NCBI GenBank assembly: GCA_964106645.2
Contig: OZ067044.1
Direction: 5' to 3' (one strand)
Source of the DNA: Podarcis pityusensis
Lineage: Eukaryota
Length of the DNA stretch: 64,000 bases
Of this stretch, positions 729 through 8,810 are shown piece after piece. Made by a program: the position numbers and the translations under genes. The notes below the pieces were generated by a model. It saw only the letters and a program-made list of their open reading frames with translations, made no database searches and was not told where the DNA came from. The number at the start of each line of letters is the position of its first letter. Positions within the stretch are counted from its first letter, which is position 1.

Positions 729-883
729 CCACCCCGCCGGTTTGCAACCTTGGAAGAAAACTTTCTGATCCCAGAATGGCTGCAGCATATTAGAAATGTA
801 GCCCACTACAGAATACATCTCTACAACCAACCAACCAACCATTAAAAAAATAAACAAAGTGAACTGATCTACTTACCCTTTTG

Positions 884-1518
884 CTATTCTGTCCTGCGCA
901 CAGAGGCAGTAGTAAATGTGATCTCTCCTGCTATACCATAGCTGCCTGCAAAGGGTGCTTTATCCCCAGCTCCTGAGCCCTTCTTCCCATTCATCACATC
1001 TTCCAGTGGTATGGCAACTGAAAGAAAAACTGGAGTTGGAGGCCTGCCGCTATCCTGTGTGGAGTTAAAATTGGGATTGGCCATTTTCGGATCTGCTGCC
1101 CTGGCAACTGGTACGGGTATTGTAGCGAACCTCCTCACAGTCCCGCCAGTATCCTGCTGTGCAAGGACAGCATGGCCAGGGATGGGTTTCCAGTCCTGTT
1201 TATTCTGAACAGAAGAGCCCACTAAAATGAAAGGTGGTGCATTTCCCTTCTTCCCTTCTTCCATCATCACATAAGTTGGAGAGGACACTTGTGGTGGTTG
1301 GCCTTGTTGTAGCATCTGCGGCTGTAGATACTGCGGCTGGTCCTTACCACTAGATATGAATAGGGTTGCCTGGGGAACAGGAGCACCAGTTCCAACAGGT
1401 GGAAGGGGTGGTGGAGGTGGTGGTGACTTGCGACCTTGTTGATGCATATCAGTTAGACAATAGAGAGTCCACACATTAGAATATGGTGGTGGTTGTCCTG
1501 GTTCGCTTGTTGCCATGG
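884..1518 (-). CDS. CABYR: CABYR coding region B exon (AMATSEPGQ...TTASVRRTE*); exon extends to 877
   Basis: Acceptor ttttatag|CC ATG (AG at 1520-1519), phase 1. TAG at 886-884. Strong similarity to recalled human CR-B. Confidence 0.93.
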
Positions 1519-4500
1519 CTATAAAATAAAAATTTAAAGAAAATTTGCTGGCATGAAAGACCATCTAGTAGGATGTACGAACTGCAGTCACATTGCATAG
1601 CCTTACCCACAACTTTATGCCACAGAGAAAGGATGTTACAGAGAGGAGAGAATCCCTGAAGGCAAAAGGGAGGACCTTGGCATGGCTGAAATGGAGAACA
1701 GCAGAAGAACCGGTTCTCATAATTTTCGAAATAAATCCAAAGTATCAGATTCACAACTTTGGGGGGCAATTTGTGTCATTAGGTACTTCTGTTGGTTGTA
1801 AGGATACTGTTTTCGTATGGGTGACCCAAAGATAATGGGTTGAAAGTGTCTCCTCGACCACAAGTCCTGTCCAGCCATGCCAACCCTTTGTGTTCCTCTA
1901 ACCCCTGTCCCCTTCGGCATTCTCTCTTCTGTAAGATGCTTCCAGACCTTACCTACCTATACCTCTCTAATGGGAAGTGACTCTAGGGAATAGTGCGCCA
2001 TCACAGGGCACACCAAGGCCATGGGAAAGGTGCTAGGAGAGCTTCTCCAGCTCGAGAACAGGAGTGGGCTACACACTTCTCACGGAGGGAGAGCAGAGAA
2101 TGAGAGGAAACAGTGTCGCCATGGGAAGCCAATCCTCCAGCTGCAGCAAGATCTGCAGTTCTCAGCAAGAAGCGATTAGTCCCCTCTCTGTCAACAATCT
2201 GGAGAAGACCAGACCTAATGGGACAGCCCAGGCAACCACCACCATTTCTTTTAAATGCAAAAACCTAAGCAGTGCCATGGCTGAGCATCTGAATACTAGT
2301 TCGTTTTTTAAAAAACACAACCTGAAGCCACAGTCACCCACATCACTTTCTGTTAACCGCTGTGAGCATGTGTGTAATTTTGATTCAAGATGCATAGTCT
2401 ATTGTGAGAGGGGCTAATCATGGTTTAAAGAAGGGCCAAAAGGCATTGGCCTAACTCCCCGCTGAATGTCATCCTGCTCCTGCCCAGTCTGCTTGTAGGA
2501 AATGATACAAGACTTGAGCAGAAAATTGGGGCAGCTGGCATTCATGCAAGGTACGTTTTGGGGCCTACTCACAATCAACCATGCACCTGGAAAAAAACAG
2601 AGGCAAAAATTCCAGACATGCACATTCCAGTTAGGTGCTGTGGGCTCTGTAACTCCCTAAAAGCAAAAGTGACCAATCACTTATCTCAACATTGCACTGC
2701 CATAGATACTTGCATTTAAATAATTAAAGCTCCAGTCATCAAGGCACTGTACCAGCACAAGGCCTTTGGGGTCACAACCACACCATTCATTTAAAGCACA
2801 TGGCTTCCCCCACAAAGTCCTGGGAATTGTAGTTTAAGGGTGCTGGGGGCTCTGTGAGAGGTAAACTGCAGTTCCCAGTATGCTTTGTTGGGGGAGCCAT
2901 GTGCTTTTAATGTACAGTGTGGGTGTGACCTCAGTCTCAGCTGAGCTATGGGCACAAGTGCATTTGAGGAGATGGAGCCATCTGTTGATTATGGAGCAAT
3001 AATATCACTACAACATGGAATAGGCAGCTTTCAGAAATATCTTGACTTTCTTACCTGACATAATAAAACCTGGATCAGCTGAACTCAGTTCCTCTGCAGT
3101 ATCCATCCTGTCAGGGTCACATTCTGCATCATCTGCAGATGGATCTAGAATACTAGCAAACTGACCTGCATTCTGCGAAGCCATCAGCGGATTAAAGAGA
3201 CATGCTACAGTGTCTACGAAAGGAATTACTATCTGCTGCGGAAACTGCTCTACATACGGTGGTGGTTGGGGCTCTCCACCAGCATTGGGATCATCATCAC
3301 ACATGGGGGTGAGCTGTATGTCTGATGTGAGCTCAATTTCACTTGAACAAGATTCAGCCTGCAATGGGTCTTTATCAGGAGGAGGAGGTGGTGGTGGTGG
3401 CGGGGGCGGCTGTTCTTCCAGCAAGGGGTCTGAGGAATCTGGATCTGCTAAGTCGGCAGGTGGCTGCTCAGCCTGACTGCCTGAGGTAACTACCTCCCCA
3501 GGAGCAGAGGTGTGACTTTGAGTGGCGGACCCAGCCCTGAGAGAGTGTACAGAAGCTGCAGGGGTAGCAGATTCTGCTTCTGCTTCTGCAGGGGCAGCAG
3601 GCTCTGCTTCTGCTTCTGCAGGCGCAGCTGGCTCTGCTTCTGCGGGGGCAGGCTCTGGTTCTGCGGGGGCAGGTTCCGGTTCCGCAGGGGCAGGTTCCGG
3701 TTCCGCGGGGGCAGGTTCCGGTTCTGCGGGGGCAGGCGGTTCCTCTTCTGCAGGGGCAGGCGCTACTTCCGATGGGGCAGGGGCAGGTTCCGGTGCGGGT
3801 GAGGGTGGCGGGGCCTCTGTGACTGAAGCAGCAAGATTCTCTACACTTTGGGATGAGGTAGGGAGCGTCTGCACTGAGACCGCCACATCCTTCAGTTCAG
3901 CTTCGGAAGAAACAGGTTCAACTTTACCTAGCATCTGGGATGCCAGCTGGGCTGGATCGGCCGGGACATAGGCGAGCCCAGCTCCCTTTTCGTCCCCAGC
4001 CCTGTCTACAAACTCGTCCACGGTCGATGGGTACTGGGTTGTCTTGGTGCACTGTTCACGGCGTGGTTCTTCACTTATCTGGTCCTCTTCTGTGTCAGTC
4101 GATTTCTCCTTCCGTTTCGGTTCGTCACTCATCGGAGCCGTCGTGTCCACCTCTGGCCTATACGCATCTCCCACGTCAGCCCTTTTGCGGGGCACCTGTG
4201 CCGCTCCTGCTGTCCCTTCTGCCCATCCTTCCACTGCAGGGTGAACAGGAAACAAGGTTAAACAGCTTTCTCCTCAAAGCGCTTTCTCTCTCTCTTTCTC
4301 TCTAAGCCACCAACTTGCAGTTGCTTAAAACCACCAACTTCCAAGTCCAGTTTGAAAAGCTTAACACTTATTTATTAATTGCTGGGAGACTCAATGAATG
4401 GCTAACATGGAGCTTGTGAAATGTTGAGGTTGTTCCATACATTCAACTGTCATATAGTGTCCACTTGTCATTTCAAGGCTGCACAATAGGAGCCGGTTTT

Positions 4501-7181
4501 CTGCAATTCCCCAAAGACTGGATTTTTAAAATACTTTCACTTTATACTTTAAATGCTGAACAGTAAATGTCATAATGACCTAGACAACATTAATCCCTTT
4601 CCATAAAACCACTTATTTCCTTTGAAGAGGGGTTACAGCTCAGTGACAGAGCAAGTGTTTTTTAAAACCTCTTCCTGTAATAGCTCATGATCTGTGATTT
4701 TTATTTTTAATATGGTTTCAATTGTACAGATGTAATTGTTACAAACCACTTTGCTATTTTTTATTTAATTTTCATATGCAAGTGTTTTTTTATGAACAAA
4801 TACATATACAAGGTCCGCTGTTTGCTCCAGTCCAGGCAGGACTGGGAAAGACCTCTATTCAAAACCCTGGGAAGTTGCTACTACAGTACTAATCAAGTAT
4901 CAACAATACTGAGGTAGATACTGGCCTGATTCAGTATTAGGCAGCTGTGTTCTTTATGGAAGGTGTCTGCTGAGCACCACTTTCTATAAACCCCAGGTTC
5001 CTACAAATCATAAGTGGATCCTTTCTACTTCAAACAATTCATCTGCTTCTGGACTATTACCAAATAGTGGTAATGGGCCTTATGGACCTGACCTGATCTC
5101 AAGTCCGAATAACCCTAAATAGCCACTATGAGGCGGCTGCCCCCCTGTGGCCACATGTCCATTTGGCAAGTTGCATGTGCACTATTCACTCCTTGTTTTC
5201 CTCTCGCATCCACTCAGCAGCCTAATTTAGAAAGCAGGGGAGACCTTTTCGTTGTTGCTATTGTTAAACAACTGGGCATCAGAATCCTCATGGATCTGCT
5301 GTGAATCACTCAAGAGATCTACCTTCTGGCCACCTCTGCCTTACAACATAGATCAGGGACATATTTGGGGACAGGGTATTTTGTGACTGCATGAATAAAC
5401 TTCCCCAACCTGCAGCTACTTATTTGTTGCATATTTTCCACAAAAATACAAGTCAACTTTGTGGGGCCTTCCAATGTTGCTGGGCTAGAACTTCCACCAT
5501 CCTTGACTGTTGGCCATGCTGTCTGAGGCTGGTGGGGGTTGTATCAAAACAACCTCTGGAAGGCCACAACTTCCACCGTCCCTGACTGCTGACCCAAACA
5601 GTGTCTCTTCAAATTGCCATTTAACAGGGGATCTATCTAAATCCAATTTAGCTGCCTCAGTTATAATCCCTTTTTGAGGGAGACAAAATAACACATTGCA
5701 GTAGTTCTGTGATCCTGTTTACAGGGGCGAAACGAGGCTTTATTTCACCCAGGTCAAACACCCAGTTTGGCACACACACCATGTGCATTTGTGTACACAC
5801 ACAGAGGCTGGAAACCTCAATGGTGCCCCTCTGAAGGCTTCACCCAGGGGGGAAAAAACTGGCTAGGTCCCCCCCCCCCAAATAGCAACGGCTCTGCTGT
5901 GTAGCATATTTTAAAAGGCATGAGATTCCAGGACTCAGGCTATGATATAAGTGGAAGACTGATGTGGCAGAAAAGGGGTTTCTATTGCTACAATTGATAA
6001 CAACAACTGTTACTCCTGCTACTAACAATACGGTTCAATAGTCTTTAAACAGAGATATCAAGTCTTTTTAACCCAAAATGATGATTCTAATACAAAAACT
6101 GCAGGCTACCATTTAAAAAGAAATACAGTTTGCACAATGCCTGTCAATATATTCTATATACTGTCTAAAGTTTATTCATACATACAATTCCTAGTGATTT
6201 AAAAACACATGTGCTAAAACACAAGATTGCTGATTTCCTCCCAATACAAGGAAGGACAATCTTTACTGCAATTAAAAGGTTAACAATCAATTTTTTGCTT
6301 GATTTGGCACTTTTCGTATTTAATTCAGTAACACTTAAGTAGGGTTTCTTATTTAATTTTCCTGGTGATATTTAATTTTCCAGGGTGAAAAGCACCCTTC
6401 CCAAGCTGCATTTTCTGGTATGGGGCGAGTTTCTGTTGGAAAATGGGATGAGGAGGCGAGCCCCTTTTCCCCCATGCCAAGTTTCCACTTCAAATAGCAC
6501 CCTCAGTGGCTGCAGTGTATTTCTTTTAAAAAGAGGGAGGGAAGGCAGGAATGATCCACACCATAAAGTGCATTCAATGCACACTTAAAGCAGACTGCTT
6601 TCCCCAAAGAATTTCAGGAACTGTAGTCCCCCCAACCTACAATTCCCAGGACCCTTAACAAACTACCACTCCCAGGATGCTTTGGGGGAAGTCATGTCCT
6701 TTAACTGTGTGTTGGCTGTGCTTTAAATGTATGGCATGCATCTGCCTGTGCTAGTTCTTGCCCCAAGAACTATTGCTTTGCTGCTCATGTCTTACCTCTA
6801 GTCATATGAAACTCTCTCACCAGGTCTTTAATGTCTAAATTAGGGTGGTCTGGAAAGAAAAGGTGGGAAAAGCTAATTAATTTTAATTCAGGGTATCAGA
6901 TTTTACAAAGGCTTGAGGGGGTGGTTTGCTGACAATTTATAAATTGGAGCCATTGCGGCAGTACTGTTAGTCCAAAATGTCACTGAATTGCTCTATAAAC
7001 TAGTATTTAACTTAAAAAAGAAGAAAAGCAAACCTTCTCGGAAAAGTATCAGTTCCCTGAAATACACAGCAGCAAATTCAGTAATGTTAGAGGGACTGGC
7101 TTTCAGAACTGCTCTGCTCACTCCCTCAAGTAGAGTCTTGAGGCCATAAGGAACCACCATCCTGGGCTTTGTGGTATGCAT
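884..7181 (-). CDS. CABYR: CABYR spliced CDS span. Long form join(7181-7034, 6849-6796, 4233-3055, 1518-884) = 671 aa; short form using the internal donor at 3928 = 380 aa
   Basis: N-terminal RIIa-type D/D domain (KPRMVVPYGLKTLLEGVSRAVLK) and motifs EKSTDTEED, AYVPADPAQLASQMLG, EQFPQQIVIPFVD, MATSEPGQPPP, PPFILVGS, PVFLSVA, GSYGIAGE match recalled human CABYR. GT-AG junctions are phase-compatible. Position downstream of TTC39C matches human synteny. Confidence 0.95.
2770..2930. mobile_element. Palindromic MITE; related copy at 6544-6746
   Basis: Inverted ends ggtcac..cacac / gtgtgggtgtgacc and internal inverted aaagcacatggcttcccc / ggggagccatgtgcttt. Confidence 0.7.
3055..4233 (-). CDS. CABYR: CABYR exon 4 (coding region A), long form; alternative internal donor at 3928
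   Basis: Acceptor cctgcag|TG GAA GGA TGG (VEGW; human VEKW). Internal donor CTAG|gtaaag (GT 3927-3926) and distal donor TCAG|gtaaga (GT 3054-3053) are both phase 1. Confidence 0.9.
3572..3800 (-). repeat. Coding minisatellite in CABYR CR-A: 21-nt units (PAPAEPE) and 30-nt units (PAAPAEAEAE)
   Basis: Four 21-nt units at 3638-3721, two 30-nt units at 3572-3631, plus degenerate flanking units. Confidence 0.9.
4626..4947 (+). mobile_element. Diverged tRNA-derived squamate SINE (Squam3-like), interrupted by an AT-rich insert
   Basis: Head ggggttacagctcagtgacagagca; body gggaaagacctct...aaaccctgg...acaatactgag...tcagtattaggcagct. Confidence 0.55.
6796..6849 (-). CDS. CABYR: CABYR 54-nt exon (DHPNLDIKDLVREFHMTR)
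   Basis: Flanked by ttttctttccag| and AGAG|gtaaga. Matches recalled human DIKDLVKQFH; phase 1-1. Confidence 0.93.
7034..7181 (-). CDS. CABYR: CABYR first coding exon, RIIa D/D domain (MHTTKPRMVV...ILFRE); exon probably begins at 7216
   Basis: ATG at 7181-7179 (ACAATG). Acceptor tttctttacag| at 7218-7217; donor GAAG|gtttgc at 7033-7032. Confidence 0.93.
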
Positions 7182-8189
7182 TGTTGCCACTTGAAGACAA
7201 TACTGCAATTTCACAACTGTAAAGAAAGGAAACTGGATGAAAAGAGACACTGGTGTTTTCTACAATCTACACAACTACTTTCTACCCACAAGCCACATGG
7301 AAGGTATTACTCAGTGATTTTTGGGGCCTCTAGTGGACAGTAATGAGGAAGTTTAGCATGTGTAGACTTCTTATGGGAATTTTTGGAGGGGAAGCCATGT
7401 TAGGCTGCAATCCACACCTCCCTCTTTGCTCAGTTCACACTGCTAACTACTTGCACCCCCAAGGGTAGCTGTAGAATGATGTCATTTTGTGCATTTATAT
7501 TCTGCCTATTAGGGCAAACCCTCCCAAGGCAGCTAACAAAAATCAATACAAGATAGCATTTCAAGAGGTGTTCGACTTCTGCAGCAAAAACAACAGAAGT
7601 TGCTTCCAAACCTGTTTACTGAGCATTCCTATTGATTTGTTTGCACGTTTGTGCGAAGGGTTACACACCTCACTTTCCAAGGTATTTTCCCATCACTCTC
7701 CGAATCACAAAAAGCACCACCTGAATTTGCAAGTATGCACTTGAATCACACCTGTAAATAGCAACAGGTGGAAGATGTCCAGGGACTCTTATAATGCCTT
7801 ACAGATTAACAAATTTAATAGTGAATCAGCTTCTATCATGTGCATGGAGTGTTATACTGAGTTACATAATACATATGGGAATTTTTGGGGGGATGGGGGT
7901 GTAAAAAGTGAGGTCAGCAAGGGAAATAAAATGCAGAAAGTATTAATTATGCACATTCACGAAACAGTTAAGTACATCCTTATCACCACACCTGCATTGT
8001 ATTTCCAGCTATATTTCTACTCAGACCTAAATATGTGTGTGTATCTACACAAACACACACACACATATATGAATCTGATGAAGTGGACAAAGTGGTCCAC
8101 GAAGTTTATGCCATAATAAGACACAAATAGCAGAGAAATGTGCTGGGAGTCTTCCCTGTGGGGAGGGTAACCACAACTGAAATAAAGCA

Positions 8190-8810
8190 TCCAGCCGTAG
8201 TAGGGCGCCGCTCCCGAGACCTCGGGCCCGGACTCCGACGCCCTTCCCTGCACGCCCCTCGCCCAGCTTCGCGGCCCTGCACGCAGGAAGCCGCCCCTCG
8301 CTCGGCTCCTTGTTTGCTCCCCATCCAACCCGCTCGTTCTGCTCATCAGCCACAAGGTGGCTCCCTCGCTCGCCAAACCGCCGCTGGCTCGAAAGCTGCC
8401 CGACCTTTCTTTAAAAAATACTTCGCTAGTCGGCTGCGCCAAAGCTCCCGCCTCGCCCCTTGCCGGAGCCTCCTCTGGAGCGGCGAAGAAGACCGGCGGA
8501 CCTTTTATATCGAGATGCTCCTGGTGGGCGGGGCTAGAGCGCACGCATTTGTGAGGTCACAAAGGCCGAGTTAGACCAGCGCTAAGGAAAGGGCGGGGAC
8601 GATGGCCCTGACGTTCGCCAGGCCTACTCTAGATATACGCGCGAAGCCCCTCAGCGCGGCCAACTCGGAGTGAGCGCGCGCCTCCCTGAAACAGGCGCGA
8701 AGGGGGTTAGGGCGTCAGGGGTCCAGCTGCAGTTATTACACGGCCGTTACATAAACGCGTGTCATTATTACAATAAAAAACCCGCCAGTAGCTCCACACG
8801 TGACGAGTTA
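8190..8810. promoter_or_regulatory. CpG island, probable CABYR promoter and non-coding exon 1 region
   Basis: Abrupt GC- and CpG-rich segment about 1 kb upstream of the first coding exon. Contains GC boxes (GGGCGGGG near 8526 and at 8591), half-CRE sites and MYB-like sites. Confidence 0.75.

Follow-up and report, generated by a model that had tools for sequence, protein, structure and literature searches.

Probable paired alternative splicing of CABYR in the lizard Podarcis pityusensis and probable repeated truncation of its coding region A in mammals

Introduction

The CABYR gene of the lizard Podarcis pityusensis probably gives rise, by paired alternative splicing, to two main predicted proteins of 380 and 504 amino acids, with a 671-amino-acid protein that joins coding regions A and B (CR-A and CR-B) as a likely minor product; under the same reading, the stop-free frame between the two regions is ancestral, and the truncations that separate them in mammals arose repeatedly. 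The gene is single-copy and lies on the minus strand of a 64,000-nucleotide stretch of DNA (GenBank assembly GCA_964106645.2, contig OZ067044.1), which is referred to as the window and to which all positions relate.

CABYR has been described on the basis of its human and mouse layout, which has two coding regions. In mouse, the gene is needed for the integrity of the fibrous sheath and for sperm motility (as cited in the accessible parts of PMC11276731 and PMC9502204), and the protein has been shown in the testis and sperm of a salamander, according to the accessible part of one paper. Two main mouse forms are described in the accessible part of Li et al. (2010; PMC3398308), one of 80 kDa and pI 4 that contains CR-A only and a neutral one of 50 kDa that contains CR-A and CR-B; the two heterodimerize, the RIIa domain binds AKAP3 and AKAP4, and two stop codons, TGA TGA, stand between CR-A and CR-B. 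The assignment of the 80-kDa form as A-only is based in that study on antibodies, together with mass spectrometry that its authors cite without showing. No literature on CABYR in reptiles, on the evolution of its isoforms or on the origin of its stops was found in searches that covered subscription papers thinly and main texts rather than supplements.

Identity and Exon Structure of the Gene

Residues 12–44 of the predicted protein form an RIIa (R2D2) domain (Pfam PF02197, E 2.7e-10, 40.2 bits against a cut-off of 22.4), and Pfam gave no match in CR-B or exon 4. CABYR clusters were the sole matches in the ESM Atlas, with scores below 0.8; the predicted 380-amino-acid isoform is identical at 379 of 380 residues to a public Podarcis CABYR isoform, and the agreement with mammalian CABYR is 54–58% over CR-B. 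A search of the species' own genome returned one locus only, which excludes a retrocopy. The upstream neighbour is TTC39C, since a fusion model from Podarcis has a "repeat 39C" portion that aligns to 50556–15141 (minus strand), and TTC39C presumably stands next to CABYR in human as well. Two submitter models of Podarcis lilfordi (929 and 986 amino acids) fuse this upstream TTC39C-like gene to CABYR via exon 1, over 50556–8406 (minus strand), and are likely annotation artefacts.

All exons are on the minus strand. Exon 1 (8405..8468) is non-coding and its 5′-end is undefined; the joint 8405^7216 was seen in the runs X1 and X5 described below, and an X5 contig spans 8468–8405. Exon 2 (7034..7216), supported by contig joints and the Pfam match, contains the ATG at 7181 and encodes the RIIa (AKAP-docking) domain. 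Exon 3 (6796..6849, 54 nucleotides), bounded by the joints 7034^6849 and 6796^4233, supplies 18 codons directly after this domain and is left out of some public models of relatives, including some from Zootoca, Varanus and ratites. Exon 4 is divided by an internal donor at 3928 (phase 1) into a proximal part (3928..4233) and a distal part (3055..3927), the latter ending at the distal donor 3055 (phase 1) and encoding the distal CR-A, in which acidic Pro/Ala/Glu repeats are followed by a conserved, Cys-bearing end and in which D and E make up 19–20% of the residues and K and R 2%. The Pro/Ala/Glu tract (3480–3800, minus strand) differs in length among reptiles, and marsupial, shrew, hummingbird and caecilian CABYR models are far longer (823–1175 amino acids).

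Exon 5 comprises a core of 167 codons behind the acceptor at 1518 (1018..1518), which encodes the proline-rich CR-B, and a tail (877..1017) that follows an internal acceptor at 1017 (phase 1), encodes 44 amino acids and is common to both main isoforms, with its stop codon at 886–884 and a donor after 877; use of the acceptor 1017 removes the core in frame. Exon 6, which belongs to the 3′-untranslated region, lies approximately 4.5 kb to the left of the window. The idea that the donor 3055 corresponds to the mammalian internal donor was dropped, as that role belongs to 3928, whereas 3055 is the counterpart of the mammalian exon end.

The Open Frame Between CR-A and CR-B

When the coding exons at 7181–7034, 6849–6796, 4233–3055 and 1518–884 (minus strand) are joined, they form 2016 nucleotides encoding 671 amino acids with one terminal stop; all three coding joints are in phase 1, and the junction 3055^1518 translates as GFIMS-A-MATSEPGQ. 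Exon joining, phases and translation thus confirm, at the level of DNA, the original prediction that CR-A runs into CR-B in frame with no intervening stop. The open 392-codon exon and GT-AG sites common to its orthologues would not be expected to arise by chance. Separation of CR-A from CR-B by one or more stop codons, as described in mouse and human, is found neither in the lizard nor in the models of many mammals, and the separating stop is a lineage-specific feature.

The 504-amino-acid isoform needs an open frame at the donor 3055 and the 380-amino-acid isoform one at the acceptor 1518, and all four splice sites are in phase 1, so that the fused frame would be open as a by-product; with each end used by one of the two isoforms, the missing stop needs no fused protein to explain it.

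Splice Joints in RNA Contigs

Eight of the 24 listed sequencing runs were examined: two runs of raw RNA reads and six contig sets taken, as a guess, to be RNA. The six contig runs, for which the tissue is not given, show many differences from the window, as relatives or other populations would, and the three deep runs all come from one study. The contigs behave as spliced RNA, in that the joints 8405^7216, 7034^6849 and 6796^4233 are all GT-AG.

Two joints downstream of these define the main isoforms. The joint 3055^1017 was present in five of the eight runs (X1, X2, X3, X8 and X12; three studies and three coded organisms), and 3928^1518 was present in six (X1, X2, X3, X5 and X8, together with two raw reads in X21; four studies). 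Contig depths for the pair ranged from 218 to 1211 in the three deep runs, although depth was not used for ranking the isoforms. The original prediction had claimed the splice 3055^1518 and proposed a check for its junction reads, having overlooked the internal donor 3928 and the internal acceptor 1017; neither 3055^1518 nor the converse combination 3928^1017 was found among the joints listed for the eight runs, a listing that was complete for one set of runs and lacked a single joint row for the other. In X3, X8 and X12, a single contig without a branch leads from exon 4 via 3055 into 1017, and in X1, X2 and X3 the contig of the exon 5 core begins at 1521. In terms of the contig graph, an end at 1521 would fit entry from the donor 3928 and from the intron, which share TAG, and not entry from the donor 3055, which shares AG only. 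The two raw-read runs, X21 and X23, had too few matching reads to decide between the joints (29 and 19, most of them in repeats). The lack of 3055^1518 in the contigs is soft evidence, because rare variants tend to vanish during contig assembly; in X5, where depth was low, even the connection to the long exon 4 is missing.

The original prediction named disregard of the donor 3055 as one way in which an A-only form could arise, a proposal that the contigs do not support. Reading past this donor without splicing leads to TAG TGA at 3010–3005 and a protein of 475 amino acids, and these stops (3005..3010, minus strand) are met only when intron 4 is retained. Such retention was seen in X1, X2 and X3 at low contig depths of 10.7 and 11.8 (whole intron) and 33.6 (part of the intron), and the joint actually seen at this donor is 3055^1017. 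No cassette exon carrying a stop was found in intron 4 among the joints listed for the eight runs.

The region 860–4240 contains 22 pairs of inverted repeats, none of which plausibly links a donor region with its partner acceptor and the longest of which sits within intron 4, and no mechanism based on RNA structure is therefore claimed. A 51-nucleotide inverted repeat at 2767–2933 in intron 4 is part of a common interspersed repeat that also occurs near 6640–6730, and it gives rise to spurious joints. The translation of the intron stretch 1519–1560 (minus strand) is almost identical to part of an entry that clusters with CABYR of the Komodo dragon, a likeness that suggests a conserved acceptor region, which may steer splice choice.

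Predicted Products

With the joint 3928^1518, the short exon 4 would be combined with the whole of CR-B to give the 380-amino-acid form (computed pI 5.86). With 3055^1017, the whole of exon 4 would be combined with the tail: 167 codons are removed in frame, and the computed product of 504 amino acids (pI 4.16) consists of the RIIa domain, the entire acidic CR-A and the 44-amino-acid tail. In size and pI, the two computed products parallel the neutral 50-kDa and the pI 4 80-kDa mouse forms, respectively. The fused 671-amino-acid form would likely be minor in the lizard. Coupling of donor to acceptor through a splicing factor or exon definition is our guess as to how the pairing might be achieved. 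Both predicted proteins keep the RIIa domain and, by analogy with mouse, would dimerize and dock on AKAP3 and AKAP4 in the sperm fibrous sheath; calcium binding by the long acidic form would likewise be predicted by analogy.

Isoforms in Public Models of Other Sauropsids

Seventeen public proteins from sauropsids (lizards, snakes, geckos, turtles and crocodilians) represent a form with the long CR-A plus the tail, as against none of 157 mammalian proteins, as classified by a rough motif script that sorted 208 of 360 proteins and misfiled a few; another comparison, of 94 mammalian models, likewise showed none. The same rough sort assigned 28 sauropsid proteins to a fused form with the long CR-A plus the full CR-B (Rhineura, Pogona, Liasis, a gecko, turtles, crocodilians and ratites), which makes it probable that certain species use the fused splice, or that it is used at a low level. 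Among lacertids, no fused protein was found in the best 120 of 221 matches or in the 27 matches of a second search (cluster representatives only), and the sole lacertid among those 27 representatives has the long-plus-tail form. The Komodo dragon RefSeq-type models seen, numbered X1–X5, have lengths of 508, 490, 484, 483 and 405 amino acids, and none is fused. The Podarcis 380-amino-acid model is numbered X4/X5, which implies that longer Podarcis models exist. An emu model and the snake, tortoise and crocodilian entries end by running into the intron.

It is conceivable that all donor–acceptor combinations are used and that the fused protein is a substantial, functional isoform that was lost from the contigs by simplification. 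The sites at 3055 and 1518 are consensus GT-AG and in frame, fused models exist in the 28 sauropsid proteins and in many mammals, and the mouse form I cDNA contains CR-A followed by CR-B (Li et al., 2010; PMC3398308, accessible part), so that the equivalent of the fused splice is used in mouse. A substantial isoform sits poorly, however, with the absence of 3055^1518 in runs in which the other two joints are so deeply represented, with the Komodo dragon models and, more weakly given that cluster representatives are involved, with the lacertid matches. We consider it rather unlikely, and paired splicing with a minor fused product remains the preferred reading.

Origin of the Stop in Mammals

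The end of exon 4 is homologous across amniotes: the motif EQG plus four residues precedes the joint in turtle and mammals, and reading into the intron continues with GKK in a snake, a tortoise, a crocodilian, several mammals and the window. Stop-free long models were found in amphibians (a caecilian, a newt and two frogs, in which homology of the joint is not established), in birds (ratites and neognaths) and in mammals (bilby, armadillo, sloth, manatee, tenrec, shrew, moles, bats, most carnivores, rhinoceros, camel, and baleen and sperm whales). In the tailed frog Ascaphus, the models P0381 and P0386 point to a second CABYR-like gene, on a contig of the same length. The model of the squirrel monkey is open and in frame; it fits what we take to be the case in human, namely that the CR-A stop is in frame with CR-B. 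As read from these models, the stop-free frame is the ancestral state, and it would be older than amniotes if the amphibian models are right. Of the earlier inference about ancestry, the open frame stands, on amphibian, reptile, bird, marsupial and placental models; the accompanying proposal that mammals gained one leaky stop does not, as many mammals have no stop and others have different stops and frameshifts.

Mammalian truncations were read from public protein models, not from DNA alignments, in a comparison of mammals other than monotremes. CR-A is truncated just before the Q of EQG in simians and elephants, before a W in horses, and at two other places in a dolphin and a porpoise. The last residues are altered to EQV in Glires, DKV in strepsirrhines, DEV in hedgehog and SNEV in ruminants, and alterations also occur in badger, colugo and pig. 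According to the protein models, nonsense changes are present in simians, elephants and horses, and frameshifts in rodents, ruminants, pig and badger. The tail was recovered as a shifted reading of the open-frame peptide at 7 of 8 residues in a rodent entry, 8 of 11 in a ruminant entry and 11 of 11 in badger, each equalled by 0 of 60 shuffles; the pig tail (5 of 5 residues) was marginal, with 5 of 60 shuffles, and for the short tails of strepsirrhines, hedgehog, colugo and gerbil a shifted reading did not beat the shuffles. Fused models of beluga, pilot whale and a beaked whale use a donor further upstream in exon 4, which bypasses the dolphin and porpoise stop region.

Stop-free relatives exist for every truncated group: elephants have the manatee, horses the rhinoceros, ruminants and pig the camel and whales, badger the mink, and hedgehog the moles. 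Parsimony by hand therefore gives 8–11 separate events, namely 8 if a single event is assigned to all Euarchontoglires and 11 if simians, strepsirrhines, colugo and Glires each had their own. This count omits models that end at the Q before the G of the motif (pig Ensembl-type, peccary and blue whale), which are probable model ends. Approximately 8–11 mammalian lineages thus likely truncated CR-A independently near the end of exon 4, through nonsense changes or one-base frameshifts. Stop-free mammals have models that leave out exon 5 and terminate in a short peptide encoded by exon 6, among them the curated dog protein of 498 amino acids.

Stop-Codon Read-Through

The original prediction referred to the attribution of a large mouse form to read-through and, in its full version, proposed that the lizard makes the fused protein, with an A-only form through intron retention, and that mammals gained one leaky stop. 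In the accessible part of Li et al. (2010; PMC3398308), the large form is CR-A only; the coordinates given place CR-A at nucleotides 73–1431 and the start of CR-B at 1443 or 1449, a remainder of 2 modulo 3, so CR-B would be out of frame with CR-A and read-through alone could not fuse them. This deduction is ours, not that of the cited study, and assumes that both numberings refer to one cDNA. Because the full-length mouse cDNA carries both regions, the A-only form there is produced by the stop rather than by splicing, and selection may thus have had a part. Neither "readthrough" nor "read-through" occurs in the accessible text of Li et al. (2010), and no literature on CABYR and read-through was found by title; a statement to that effect may stand in the primary papers of 2002–2005.

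That version is in keeping with a real and ancestral open frame, with the low-depth retained-intron contigs and with the emu, snake, tortoise and crocodilian models that end inside the intron, but it is opposed by the many stop-free mammals, by the differences among stops in place and kind, and by the frame and the A-only nature of the mouse form; we hold it to be very improbable as a whole, and its mammalian part is contradicted already. Nor is it at all probable that the joints or the lineage-specific truncations are artefacts of a retrocopy, mis-assembly or annotation errors: the joint 3055^1017 was flagged "between: not known" with a short side of 26–30 nucleotides, truncations in single genomes (colugo, hedgehog) could be assembly indels, and a Q is the unusual last residue of certain Ensembl-type models (pig, peccary, blue whale), but the genome has one locus, the joints are GT-AG, in frame and match independent squamate, turtle and crocodilian models, and in simians, Glires, ruminants, equids, elephants and strepsirrhines the truncations recur in many species of the group.

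Significance and Comparison with Known Systems

Under paired splicing with an ancestral open frame, the tail isoform was apparently lost in mammals, and the end of exon 4 may then have tolerated, or favored, stops; truncation there would fix the A-only product genetically. Drift, with the frame of the junction no longer needed, and selection, with the fused protein harmful, both fit the mammalian stops. We tentatively raise the possibility, in which we have less than even confidence, that amniotes keep the acidic CR-A and the CR-B core on separate molecules by selection, which would have acted through paired splicing in reptiles, through skipping of exon 5 in stop-free mammals, and through approximately 8–11 independent stops or frameshifts in the last codons of exon 4, those of simians and rodents among them. 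The human and mouse layout would then be a convergent adaptive truncation of an essential sperm-tail protein rather than a design common to mammals or based on read-through.

CABYR and every isoform discussed here are already in public annotation, and no new kind of system is involved; the evolutionary pattern of the isoforms and stops is apparently undescribed. Should the human and mouse layout prove to be derived and convergent, with a frameshift in mouse, read-through would not be a general explanation and the human and mouse stops would not be homologous. The conserved element would then be the pair of products, one with a long acidic CR-A that lacks the CR-B core and one in which a short CR-A is combined with that core. 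The gene offers a small, well-defined case in which to study how a reproductive gene is truncated repeatedly, by selection or drift, and how the choice of 5′ and 3′ splice sites is coupled.

Sauropsid models and those of stop-free mammals (dog, cats, bats and armadillo) share the lack of a stop at the end of exon 4 and a set of fused, short and long-without-core isoforms; CR-B is dropped by skipping of exon 5 in stop-free mammals, whereas an internal acceptor is used in sauropsids. Mouse CABYR resembles that of the lizard in its N-terminal RIIa domain, in having a long acidic product without the CR-B core and a shorter, neutral product with a short CR-A plus CR-B, and in the same internal donor, which gives approximately 380 amino acids in rodent models. 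It differs in that the mouse CR-A ends at TGA TGA with CR-B in another frame, whereas the lizard has no stop, drops the CR-B core through an internal acceptor and keeps a 44-amino-acid tail. Primates likewise have a long CR-A form, of approximately 487 amino acids, and forms of 221–222 amino acids made via an internal acceptor in exon 5; unlike in the lizard, CR-A of simians ends at the Q of the EQG motif, and the internal acceptor of primates, located a few codons beyond that of the lizard, is used together with the short donor, which is the opposite pairing.

Genes with programmed stop-codon read-through have an open, conserved coding stretch after the stop. CABYR resembles them in that species with a stop have such a stretch beyond it. 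It differs in that no stop is conserved with in-frame coding after it: the lizard has none, mammalian stops vary in position and type by lineage, and CR-A ends in a frameshift in mouse and other Glires, ruminants and badger. The conservation of CR-B is accounted for in CABYR by the short spliced isoform.
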